Below are positions 34,460 through 36,812 of a stretch of 64,000 nucleotides of DNA, in pieces. The first letter of the stretch is position 1; the number at the start of each line of letters is the position of its first letter. The position numbers and the translations under genes were made by a program. Origin of the DNA: an uncultured Agathobaculum sp. (GTDB lineage: Bacteria > Bacillota > Clostridia > Oscillospirales > Butyricicoccaceae); the NCBI GenBank assembly GCA_944380985.1, contig CALWJJ010000005.1:21648-85647 (forward strand). The letters run 5' to 3'. A model generated the notes under the pieces. It had not been told where the DNA came from, made no database searches, and saw only the letters and a list, made by a program, of their open reading frames with translations.

Positions 34460-34489
34460 TTGACTTTGCCGAACAAGCAGTGGTATAAT
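34460..34489 (+). promoter_or_regulatory. Sigma-A promoter of nrdR
   Basis: TTGACT-18 bp-TATAAT with TG extension. Confidence 0.55.
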
Positions 34490-34532
34490 AAAAATATACA
34501 TAATTAATAATTTTTAATGAGAGGTGAAGCGC

Positions 34533-34988
34533 ATGAAATGTCCGTTTTGCGGTTGTGACGACAGCAAGGTCGTCGATTCGCGCCCGACTGACGAGGGCAC
34601 GAGTATCCGCCGCCGGCGGGAATGCCTCAAGTGCCTCAAACGCTTTACCACCTATGAGACGGTCGAGCGCATGCCGCTGATGCTGGTCAAGCGGGATGGC
34701 ACCCGCCAGGCTTACGACCGTGAAAAGCTGCTGCGCGGCCTGATGAAGGCGTGCGAAAAGCGCCCGGTCTCGCTCATGCAACTCGAGCAGATTGTCGATG
34801 CGGTTGAGCAGAAGGTGTTCGGCACGCTTGAGAGCGAGGTGTCGAGCAAGGTGATCGGCGAGCTCGTCATGGAGGGCCTGCGCAAGGTGGATGAGGTTGC
34901 CTATGTCCGCTTTGCATCGGTCTACCGGCAGTTTAAGGATATTAACACTTTTATGGAGGAGCTCAACACGCTGATCAAGGATAAGTGA
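34533..34988 (+). CDS. nrdR: Transcriptional repressor NrdR
   Basis: MKCPFC...KVVDSR...[16 protein letters not shown] zinc ribbon; ATP cone; [13 protein letters not shown]. Confidence 0.97.
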
Positions 34989-35191
34989 ATCCGCGCGACT
35001 TCCCGCGGGGGAACCAGCCTGTTTGCGCCCCCATGTAAAACCGATAGCGAAAATGTTAAGATCCAGGGCGCCAAATGTGCTTTGGATCTTTTTTTCAAAT
35101 ATTGCGGGATTTTTGAATGGATTTCCCTCGCTGGATCGTGTATGGGGTGAAAGGGTAAAACACCACCACACAACAGAGGGAGGAACAAATT

Positions 35192-35560
35192 ATGAAAAAG
35201 GTACAGACTGGTATTGTGGCCGCGGCGCTGCTGGCGGCTATCGGTGTGACGAGTGCGTTTGCCGCCGGCCCCGGCTGGGGATGGCGGGCAGGCCGAGACG
35301 CTGTCCGGCCCGCGTGCACCGGCGCATTCTGCCGCTATGCGGATGCGGATGGCGATGGTGTGTGCGATGTCTGCGGCGCTGTCGGCGTGTCCGGATGGGG
35401 CAGATACGATGAGAGTGTTGGCGGCAACGGCGTTCGCCTTGGCTGCGGCACAGCGGGGCGGTATTACACTGATGAAAACGGCGACGGCGTGTGCGACCGC
35501 TATGCAGACGGCGCATATCTCGGTTACGGCCGCGGCGCATGCGGAGTATACGGAAGATGA
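35192..35560 (+). CDS. Secreted Gly/Cys-rich small protein with two Dx[DN]GDGxCD motifs
   Basis: GGAGG RBS; signal peptide MKKVQTGIVAAALLAAIGVTSAFA; DADGDGVCD and DENGDGVCD; 7 Cys. Confidence 0.75.
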   Translation: MKKVQTGIVAAALLAAIGVTSAFAAGPGWGWRAGRDAVRPACTGAFCRYADADGDGVCDVCGAVGVSGWGRYDESVGGNGVRLGCGTAGRYYTDENGDGVCDRYADGAYLGYGRGACGVYGR

Positions 35561-35584
35561 TCTGATAGCAGGTGGGGGTTCGGA

Positions 35585-36067
35585 ATGCGCAATGAACAAG
35601 AGGTGAACAGGGCGATTGAGCAGTATGCCGATACTGTCCGCCGTCTGTGCATGCTCTATTTGAAAAATCATGCCGATACTGAGGATGTTTTTCAAACCGT
35701 GTTTATGAAGTATCTGCTGCATACCGAGCCTTTTGCCGATGATGAGCACGAAAAGGCATGGCTCATCCGCGTTACGATCAACGCATGTAAGGATGTGCTC
35801 AAAAGCTTTTTCCGCCGTCGCACGGTCTCGCTCGACGAGGTGCTCGAGCAGCCCGCCTTGATCGCGCCAGACCATCGGGAAGTGCTCGAGGCTGTTCTTG
35901 CGCTGCCGCAGAAATACCGGGATGTGGTATACCTACATTATTATGAGGGATATGCCGCGCCTGCGATTGGCCGCATTCTGGGCAAGAATGCCAACACGGT
36001 GTATACGCTGCTCGGCCGCGCAAGGCAGCAGCTTCGCGCAAAGCTGGGAGGTGAGGGCGATGGATGA
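35585..36067 (+). CDS. ECF-type RNA polymerase sigma factor
   Basis: DTEDVFQTVF, HEKAWLIRVTINACKD (region 2); LPQKYRDVVYLHYYEGY...VYTLLGRARQQL (region 4); 160 aa. Confidence 0.93.
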   Translation: MRNEQEVNRAIEQYADTVRRLCMLYLKNHADTEDVFQTVFMKYLLHTEPFADDEHEKAWLIRVTINACKDVLKSFFRRRTVSLDEVLEQPALIAPDHREVLEAVLALPQKYRDVVYLHYYEGYAAPAIGRILGKNANTVYTLLGRARQQLRAKLGGEGDG

Positions 36068-36812
36068 ACGGATCAGGAAAGCGTTTGATCAGATCCGTGC
36101 GGACGAGGCGCTAAAAGAGCGAACACGCGCGAGTCTCGCCCGCAGGCAGGCCGGACGGCGGCGCGCTCTGCCTGGGCGCCTGCGCACGATTACCGTGCTC
36201 GCCTGCCTAGCGCTTATGCTGCTGACCGGCTGGGGCGGCTATCAGGTGTATTTTACGCCTACGTCGATCATCAGCATTGATGTCAACCCATCGGTTGAGC
36301 TAGGCGTCAACCGCTTTGGCAGGGTCGTTGCGGTCAATGGCTATAACCGTGATGGAGAGGCGCTCGCTGCCGCGCTCGACGTGCGGTTTATGGACTATGC
36401 CGAGGCGCTCAGCCGCATTCTGGACAGCGAGGCGTTTGCGGCATATGAGGCGGACGGTGCGATCGTCCTGATCGCCGTGCTGGATGCAGACGAGGCGCGC
36501 GGCGGCGAAATGCTTGCACGGGTCGAGTCCTGTACCGCAGGGCGGCAAAATACGCACTGTCTTGCAGACGATATGGACGCTGCTCAGCACGCGCATGAGG
36601 CCGGTCTGTCTTATGGCAAATACCGTGCGTATCTGGCGCTCAGGGAGCTCGATCCGTCGGTCACGCCGGATGAGGTGCGCGATATGTCCATGCGCGCTAT
36701 CCGCGACCAGATTGCCGCGCTGTCGGACGGGAATGTAACCGTACAGACTGGACATACGGGCGGCGGACAGGGAAAGGGATACCGGCATCAGGCGCGGCAA
36801 GGCGCGGGATGA
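36060..36812 (+). CDS. Single-pass anti-sigma factor with RsgI-like extracytoplasmic domain
   Basis: Short cytoplasmic helix, TM, then SIISIDVNPSVELGVNRFGRVVAVNGYNRDG (RsgI-type); overlaps the sigma gene stop. Confidence 0.75.
   Translation: MDERIRKAFDQIRADEALKERTRASLARRQAGRRRALPGRLRTITVLACLALMLLTGWGGYQVYFTPTSIISIDVNPSVELGVNRFGRVVAVNGYNRDGEALAAALDVRFMDYAEALSRILDSEAFAAYEADGAIVLIAVLDADEARGGEMLARVESCTAGRQNTHCLADDMDAAQHAHEAGLSYGKYRAYLALRELDPSVTPDEVRDMSMRAIRDQIAALSDGNVTVQTGHTGGGQGKGYRHQARQGAG

Follow-up and report, generated by a model that had tools for sequence, protein, structure and literature searches.

A conserved unit of secreted peptide, ECF sigma factor and SEAL-domain anti-sigma factor in gut anaerobes: a candidate self-contained envelope-signaling module

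The DNA considered here, called the window below, is a stretch of 64,000 nucleotides (nt) of contig CALWJJ010000005.1 from an uncultured Agathobaculum sp. (assembly GCA_944380985.1; the genome of the window is designated G000), and coordinates are positions within it unless a contig is named. The window carries three tightly packed open reading frames (ORFs) on the + strand (35192-36812), flanked by the nrdR terminator on one side and by a convergently oriented uracil-permease gene on the other, which encode a small secreted peptide, a sigma factor of the extracytoplasmic function (ECF) type and a single-pass membrane anti-sigma factor with an extracytoplasmic SEAL domain. This trio is a real, conserved and uncharacterized unit. 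An earlier note on the same DNA, made from the sequence alone, had proposed that no characterized system has this layout, and a full-text search of the literature bears this out, with no paper found on either the ECF/SEAL pair or the peptide.

The peptide and sigma genes are separated by 24 nt (35561-35584), and the sigma and anti-sigma genes overlap by 8 nt (ATGGATGA, 36060-36067), with the anti-sigma ATG at 36060. The 5' boundary of the unit is set by the intrinsic terminator of nrdR (35058-35090, + strand), a 14-bp stem followed by a T-run. A terminator scan returned four matches in total, against 2.5 +/- 1.7 expected by chance, and none between the trio genes is credible; the sole internal match is a 5-bp stem within the sigma ORF. 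Coordinates and scan thus agree with the earlier description of three packed same-strand genes with a 24-bp gap, an 8-bp overlap and no intervening terminator.

The first gene of the operon (35192-35560, + strand), served by a strong Shine-Dalgarno sequence (GGAGGA), encodes a 122-amino-acid (aa) product (P0001). Residues 1-24 (35192-35263, + strand) form a Sec signal peptide with cleavage after AFA, recognizable both in family alignment A1 and as a helix (residues 3-24) in the structural model; the signal sequence reads MKKVQTGIVAAALLAAIGVTSAFA and is followed by AGPG (MKK...TSAFA, then AGPG), and the residues around the site (A22, F23, A24 and A25) are nearly or completely invariant in A1. 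The mature part has 98 residues, among them 7 Cys and 25 Gly, and ends in a Gly/Tyr/Arg tail. Two copies of a DxDGDGVCD motif, each a candidate cation loop, are embedded in it on the + strand: DADGDGVCD at residues 51-59 (35342-35368), where G56 and C58 are invariant in A1 and D51, G54, D55 and D59 are conserved in at least 90% of sequences, and DENGDGVCD at residues 94-102 (35471-35497), where D94, G97, D98, G99 and C101 are all invariant. An AlphaFold2 model built from 24 sequences has a predicted local distance difference test score (pLDDT) of 50, with disorder predicted for everything beyond the signal helix.

Around this product lies a large and highly variable family, comprising 1363 clusters at 50% identity (E<=1e-10), with lengths of 82-319 aa and mostly of 100-180 aa. 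Its members share the signal peptide, a mature chain that opens with AGPGxGR, one to five [FY]xDxDGDG[VI]CD loops and a tail that is either Gly-rich and basic or His-rich. A reading of the peptide as a disulfide knot was rejected, as neither the number of Cys residues (2-14) nor their parity is conserved. The loop corresponds to the Excalibur/EF-hand-like signature DxDxDGxxC[DE], and weak EF-hand matches appear in the Pfam scan. The window peptide itself matches no Pfam or NCBIfam model in library scans, Excalibur (PF05901) included, although the motif occurs in it twice; a paralogue of the peptide reaches 20.3 bits against the Excalibur cutoff of 22. PF27309, a newer Pfam entry, is a precomputed label on 10 of 23 peptide homologues. 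The cation-loop repeat, in 8-23 copies, is also found in a few giant proteins (P0035, 3056 aa; P0037, 2026 aa; P0084, 4677 aa; P0030; P0047), so the loop is a building block of very large proteins, too, which are presumably located at the surface.

The second gene (35585-36067, + strand) encodes a group 4, or ECF, sigma factor of 160 aa (P0002). It has the two regions of a classical ECF sigma, sigma2 and sigma4 (Sigma70_r2, 5e-11; Sigma70_r4_2, 8e-13), and exceeds the TIGR02937 cutoff of 42.9 bits with a score of 68.4, while its matches to NCBIfam subfamily and equivalog models all lie under their cutoffs. The nearest structures are all ECF sigmas, with Bacillus subtilis SigW the nearest solved relative. 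A SigI-type identity is not supported: residues 98-150 match the canonical Sigma70_r4_2 end to end, and no SigI model is among the best 25 NCBIfam matches.

The third gene (36060-36812, + strand) encodes the anti-sigma factor, 250 aa in length (P0003), whose single-pass organization emerges from Pfam, the model and the alignments. On the cytoplasmic side is a short N-terminal segment of two helices (residues 1-35, 36060-36164, + strand; model helices 3-10 and 16-33), in which A8, F9, A14, K19 and T22 are conserved at 90% or above in alignment A2. Its position and the translational coupling of the two genes make it the presumed sigma-binding element. It is neither of two familiar types: at E<=1 the Pfam scan of the protein returns RsgI_M alone and no RsgI_N (PF12791), and residues 1-38 have no Cys or His, although the HxxxCxxC motif of a zinc-binding (ZAS) class I anti-sigma domain would call for both, nor is there a zf-HC2 match. 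A genuine RsgI-type N-terminus is present in a more distant search match, L096. A continuous hydrophobic helix in the model marks the transmembrane segment (residues ~39-65, 36174-36254, + strand).

The extracytoplasmic part is a complete SEAL (RsgI_M) domain, yet the protein is not an RsgI. The domain spans residues 69-224 (36264-36731, + strand) on the combined evidence of Pfam, the Protein Data Bank (PDB), the model and Foldseek: PF23750 matches residues 69-192 at 9.5e-22, and periplasmic domains of Clostridium thermocellum RsgI proteins in the PDB align through residue 214 (8hep_B, 2e-8). The AlphaFold2 model has a pLDDT of 89 overall and above 90 within the SEAL domain, and the top 10 Foldseek matches to it are all RsgI structures (probability 1.00, template modeling score [TM] 0.62-0.76). 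Beyond the domain there is a disordered tail of 26 residues rich in Gly, His, Arg and Gln (residues 225-250, 36732-36809, + strand; pLDDT 54-70, no secondary structure), where neither a long disordered region nor a carbohydrate-binding module is found; across the family the median tail length is 34 aa, and Gly, His, Gln and Asn predominate. Pfam, fold and tail length are all as the earlier note described them, namely an RsgI-type ectodomain with a short Gly/His/Arg tail, paired with a classical ECF sigma.

Within this domain, Asn76-Pro77 (36285-36290, + strand) is the predicted autoproteolytic site-1 bond. In the model it sits in the turn of a beta-hairpin joining strands 69-74 and 78-83; both residues are invariant in the 53 family sequences of A2, and D74, S78, E80 and L81 are nearly so. 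Three solved chains (8hep_B, 8her_B and 8u9o_B) have as their first residue, newly exposed by self-cleavage, the one that aligns with P77. In B. subtilis RsgI the SEAL domain cleaves itself between N97 and P98, a shared beta-sheet holds the fragments together, and RasP cleaves the membrane stub after the ectodomain has been released; autoproteolysis is established only for RsgI homologues and for two other SEAL families (PMC10556640). A potential counterpart of RasP is encoded in G000, as an M50 site-2 protease (PF02163, 206 bits, C1:152690-153658).

An indication of how the unit is controlled comes from a conserved ECF-type promoter (35114-35142, + strand) between the nrdR terminator and the peptide gene. 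It reads TGAATGGATTTCCCTCGCTGGATCGTGTA in the window, with a -35 element TGAATGGA (35114-35121) and a -10 element CGTGTA (35137-35142), and the GAA of its -35 lies 77 nt before the peptide ATG. The family motif is TGAATGGATT-N14-CGTATTA, of which the window has the version TGAATGGATT-N14-CGTGTA. It is preceded by an A/T-rich tract, the distance from GAA to CGTAT is an invariant 27 nt, and it lies 63-100 nt from the ATG across systems (~160 nt in two loci). A weight matrix detects it in 41 of 42 systems (>=21 bits), and a strict pattern in 35 of 42. Recognition of such a motif by the adjacent sigma is the standard inference for ECF autoregulation, and the trio has the corresponding signature, a GAA-type -35 and a CGT-type -10 ahead of its own operon.

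Scans beyond the locus suggest a very small regulon. Over the 1.84-Mb draft of G000, the window site scores 49 bits and the next best 9 bits with the full weight matrix; with a matrix restricted to the core, the values are 26.7 and 17.4 bits. Two secondary sites were rejected as weak: C9:70712 falls within an antisense ORF, and the core runner-up, C13:18374 (17.4 bits, with CAT for CGT), falls inside an ORF and is probably a chance match. From the conserved promoter and the lack of a second strong genomic site, the peptide follows as the only predicted output of the system. Across 22 genomes the strict pattern gives 19 matches, against none for a reversed-pattern control, and 17 of them sit just 5' of peptide-like genes; the other two (L120 and L127), with no gene within 250 nt, were treated as chance. 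The same promoter precedes nine orphan peptide genes that have no adjacent sigma. Six of the eight genomes with such orphans encode the sigma/anti-sigma pair elsewhere, and there, too, a promoter and a gene for a Cys/His-rich secreted peptide come first. Taken together, the promoter matches and the orphan genes suggest for this sigma family a conserved regulon that consists of the sigma's own operon and of one to three peptide genes. Elsewhere in G000, two other ECF sigma genes (C2:252179 and C1:55234) are preceded by a CGTATT/CGTGTT -10-like element with a different -35; these are probably their own autoregulatory promoters.

Conservation of the trio was examined from both ends. A peptide-based search with alignment A1 gave 79 loci, each from a different species, and at 41 of them peptide, sigma and anti-sigma follow in the same order on the same strand; the sigma homologues at trio loci match at E values of 1e-55 to 1e-80 with a median identity of 68%, and the anti-sigma homologues have a median identity of 43%. 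The independent reverse search with the anti-sigma found a SEAL match in 51 of 301 genomes of the same order, and a recognizable peptide gene lies upstream in 10 of the 11 closest anti-sigma homologues. Such recurrence goes far beyond what chance would produce. The neighborhood check that the earlier note had called for therefore places the peptide gene firmly beside sigma/anti-sigma homologues, in a fixed order and with short spacers in more than 50 species. In a test set of high-quality genomes drawn from the same genus or family, the 15 without the anti-sigma are all without the peptide as well, and the five with the anti-sigma all have the peptide. In one respect the earlier note needs correction: the pairing of a SEAL (RsgI) domain with an ECF sigma is not special to this locus. 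It defines a large family, which comprises at least 482 protein clusters (90% identity); those with a listed source name are all called 'hypothetical'.

Trio carriers include Oscillospiraceae, Lachnospiraceae and Christensenellaceae and, in a second phylum, the Coriobacteriia (Raoultibacter, Adlercreutzia and Slackia). None of the three sampled genomes from the genus of the window (G118, G228 and G255) has the trio, and yet it is present in Coriobacteriia (L047, L063, L065 and L071), a combination that suggests horizontal spread among gut anaerobes. Cultured carriers include Adlercreutzia wanghongyangiae R7 (L063) and Slackia equolifaciens DSM 24851 (L071). Flanking genes likewise vary among trio loci, which makes the module appear autonomous and patchily distributed. 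In the window the flanks are the uracil-permease gene and nrdR, whose ORF occupies 34524-34988 upstream of the trio; just 5' of nrdR is a near-consensus sigma-70 promoter (34460-34489; TTGACT-18-TATAAT with a TG extension, 11 of 12 matches). In the closest same-family relative, the peptide gene (G099 C6:819158-819469) has one in-frame TAA within the aligned region, which may mean a pseudogene or an alignment artifact.

The head position of the operon may be more strictly kept than the sequence that fills it. At several loci (L089:438-992, L094:341-1009, L107:2708-3130 on the - strand, L138 and L122) the slot is occupied by a different Cys-rich secreted repeat protein, with repeats such as CPNDGVCDGTGxQYRGG, CYADGSCDVxGVCTLGVACDGTVHHT and His-rich DHDGYCD variants: the slot is kept and the sequence swapped. 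L089, L094 and L107 came to light in the search with the anti-sigma. More distant relatives of the peptide (L039, L041, L042, L049, L074 and L077), from Chloroflexi (Anaerolineae and Ardenticatenaceae), Christensenella, Roseburia and Zixibacteria, adjoin not an ECF pair but genes for a response regulator of the OmpR type and a histidine kinase resembling BaeS/WalK, and at L039 a small membrane protein of ~120 aa is encoded directly upstream. These two-component neighbors are generic, with NCBIfam scores all below cutoffs, and give no specific clue to function; their adjacency to distant relatives nonetheless suggests that the peptide family has repeatedly been wired to envelope sensors.

We favor, with moderate confidence, the view that the whole is a self-contained, positively autoregulated envelope-signaling module. 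In the resting state, the two short N-terminal helices of the anti-sigma would keep the ECF sigma tethered to the membrane, while the SEAL ectodomain, by homology to RsgI, would already have cut itself at Asn76-Pro77 with its fragments held together by the shared beta-sheet. An extracytoplasmic stimulus would cause the ectodomain fragment to depart, the M50 site-2 protease of the genome could then cut the membrane stub, and the freed sigma would transcribe from the one promoter that fits it, yielding peptide, more sigma and more anti-sigma. With a single fitting promoter, the only non-regulatory product would be the Sec-secreted, disordered peptide. This circuit architecture is the part that we hold with considerable assurance. 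A further step is put forward more tentatively, at less than even confidence: the peptide may be a divalent-cation-binding envelope effector that buffers or removes the stimulus and possibly touches the similarly composed tail of the anti-sigma, giving feedback of the ZraP/CpxP kind.

Several points weigh against this interpretation. Transcription start and co-transcription of the trio are predicted from the sequence, and recognition of the promoter by the trio sigma is deduced from position and co-occurrence. G000 is a draft of 20 contigs at 97% completeness, so a second target could fall in a gap, and the rejected core site at C13:18374 is followed, 239 nt further downstream, by a gene for a 420-aa secreted protein with an N-terminus resembling S-layer homology domains. 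Self-cleavage and intramembrane proteolysis are extrapolated from RsgI proteins at 17-24% identity. Cation binding is deduced solely from motifs, the window peptide has no His, and Cys residues vary in number and parity across the peptide family.

The main competitor assigns the peptide to the input side, as a detached sensing module or co-receptor that binds the anti-sigma tail or the SEAL domain, perhaps through shared cations; the ectodomain could thereby be tethered to the wall or to an external ligand for force, or be stabilized until the peptide is titrated away. Some of the comparative data do lean this way. In a sister ECF/SEAL clade (L098, L101-L105 and L099, from genomes G040, G010, G087, G109, G039, G086 and G140), a similar promoter lies directly before the sigma and the operon has no peptide gene, which is absent genome-wide in five of the seven genomes. 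The anti-sigma tails of this clade are 81-178 aa long, whereas those of the peptide-linked clade have a median length of 34 aa and that in the window has 26 (Mann-Whitney p ~8e-5, from few lineages); they are rich in Ser, Asn and Gly, and three of them (L098, L101 and L102) bear (S/T)SSC-type Cys repeats near the C-terminus. Within the peptide-linked systems, His counts in the last 40 peptide residues and in the cognate anti-sigma tail covary (Spearman rho 0.63, p 7e-5, n=34; partial correlation 0.69 after guanine-plus-cytosine content; rho 0.005 for the cytoplasmic sigma as a control), in statistics that ignore phylogeny; the covariation also speaks for the favored reading. These findings fit a shared chemistry of, or contact between, peptide and tail. 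The strict co-occurrence of the peptide with the regulator pair points in the same direction, as does the need of RsgI proteins for an extension in order to sense (PMC10556640, PMC9732909). Against a sensing role, the peptide varies extremely in sequence, with 82-319 aa, 1-5 repeats and 2-14 Cys, and some systems replace it with unrelated-looking Cys-rich repeats. Extra unlinked paralogues under the same promoter in several genomes are better explained by a bulk product than by a specific ligand, and fusions of the SEAL domain to peptide-type repeats are missing from the 120 best anti-sigma homologues, all of which are 232-314 aa with PF23750 alone. On balance we judge a sensing role unlikely. 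A specific form of it, which we regard as doubtful, makes the peptide a self-induced, trans-acting 'detachable tail' of a mechanosensitive SEAL anti-sigma, assembled by means of shared divalent cations on the short Gly/His tail; after self-cleavage the ectodomain would be linked through the peptide to the cell wall or an external polymer, and force or cation availability would decide release. The earlier note had offered the peptide as missing sensing module, ligand or main output of an autoregulatory loop, and the promoter data uphold the last of these, while the first two have circumstantial evidence only.

That the peptide is the sole output, secreted and positively autoregulated also accords with an autoinducing or antagonistic product, bacteriocin-like or signaling, that triggers its own synthesis through the anti-sigma. 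A cationic tail of Gly with Arg or His and a high number of Cys would suit such a product, and so would a patchy distribution reminiscent of mobile modules, with same-genus genomes lacking the trio and two phyla having it. Against it, the loci have no adjacent immunity, modification or dedicated export genes and differ in their flanks, disorder is predicted for the mature part, and the conserved core consists of acidic cation loops rather than the cationic tail. The export signal is an ordinary Sec signal, not a leader peptide; together with the lack of nearby modification genes, this makes a lantibiotic or other ribosomally synthesized and post-translationally modified peptide unlikely, and we consider the autoinducer reading as a whole improbable. 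The gene linkage might finally be uninformative, with the peptide driven by another sigma and the pair controlling unlinked genes that the promoter model misses; around seven other ECF-like sigmas are encoded in the genome, and some of their promoters share the CGTATT -10. This runs counter to the fixed gene order and short spacers across species, to the absence of a terminator between the genes and to the joint gain or loss of peptide and regulator pair in 20 of 20 genomes. The promoter, moreover, tracks peptide genes even where they are unlinked, and does so only in genomes with this sigma family. We regard uninformative linkage as very improbable.

The favored reading, a self-contained and autoregulated envelope module, bears on several wider questions. 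SEAL autoproteolysis is a recently discovered principle of bacterial mechanotransduction, known to date only from SigI-RsgI systems, in which the extension is long and either disordered or carbohydrate-binding. Here, in a family found mostly in gut Clostridia and Coriobacteriia, the SEAL core is wired to an ordinary ECF sigma and always travels with a secreted cation-loop peptide. With three genes, one promoter and one output, the trio could serve as a minimal and portable test bed for release of the SEAL ectodomain, and it may also help to reveal what purpose is served by a regulon whose single gene encodes a disordered secreted peptide. It supplies function-relevant context for small 'hypothetical' secreted proteins that are widespread in gut anaerobes. 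Should the peptide prove to be a detachable tail, the trio would represent the disordered-region sensor of RsgI split into two pieces and connected to an ECF sigma, and the sensing extension of a SEAL protein could then come as a separate secreted gene product whose amount is set by the pathway itself.

Several known systems resemble the trio in part. The lantibiotic circuits of actinomycetes governed by MibX/MibW (microbisporicin) and PspX/PspW (planosporicin) are feed-forward ECF circuits within large clusters that include modification and immunity genes. They share with the trio an ECF/anti-sigma pair and a secreted peptide as key output, possibly acting back on the anti-sigma; the trio differs in having no modification or immunity genes and a peptide with a Sec signal, and there is no homology. 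CnrYXH of Cupriavidus metallidurans is a Ni/Co-sensing ECF system that controls an efflux pump and whose sensor, CnrX, is folded and anchored in the membrane. It too is a three-gene ECF unit with a very short cytoplasmic anti-sigma segment and a third, extracytoplasmic component related to metals, but it has no SEAL domain, no homology to the trio and a different gene order.

In ZraP-ZraSR and CpxP-CpxAR, which are two-component systems, small periplasmic accessory proteins of folded, helical structure are both main output and modulator of the sensor. The likeness to the trio lies in an envelope sensor whose output is mainly or solely a small secreted protein and in low-complexity features suited to metal binding (Gly/His tails in many members), and by analogy a feedback role is plausible here; the trio, however, is an ECF/SEAL pair with a disordered product and has no homology to them. 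The loops of the peptide have their own parallels in EF-hand-like domains. Their DxDGDGVCD repeat has the same pattern as the signature DxDxDGxxCE of Excalibur (PF05901), known from extracellular calcium-binding regions of bacteria, and EF-hand-like DxDxDG loops are shared with thrombospondin type-3 repeats and dockerin, but in the peptide a disordered, Gly-rich chain bears 1-5 of them in tandem, with no folded domain around them.

The classical ECF switches sigmaW-RsiW, sigmaV-RsiV and sigmaE-RseA have in common with the trio an autoregulated operon, a GAA..CGT-type promoter, a translationally coupled membrane anti-sigma and a site-2 protease. The site-1 cut of the trio is, by contrast, expected to be autocatalytic rather than made by PrsW, signal peptidase or DegS, and its regulon is apparently one secreted peptide instead of tens of envelope genes. 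RsgI-type partners do not appear in the main text of an ECF classification paper (PMC7826278).

Closest of all are the SigI-RsgI systems, represented by RsgI of B. subtilis and RsgI1-9 of Clostridium (Hungateiclostridium) thermocellum, which have the same single-pass layout with a juxtamembrane SEAL domain. The scissile motif, D-[IV]-N/P-S-[IV]-E-L with the slash marking the bond, is identical and lies likewise in a beta-hairpin of the same fold, and constitutive self-cleavage followed by intramembrane cleavage by RasP/RseP would be expected for the trio too (PMC10556640; PMC10328401). The differences concern what is attached to this core on either side of the membrane. In the cytoplasm, the partner is a sigma2/sigma4 ECF factor and not SigI, and a two-helix segment of ~35 aa replaces RsgI_N; outside, a 26-aa tail stands in place of the long disordered region or carbohydrate-binding module, and the operon of the trio is headed by a secreted-peptide gene that is also its only predicted target.

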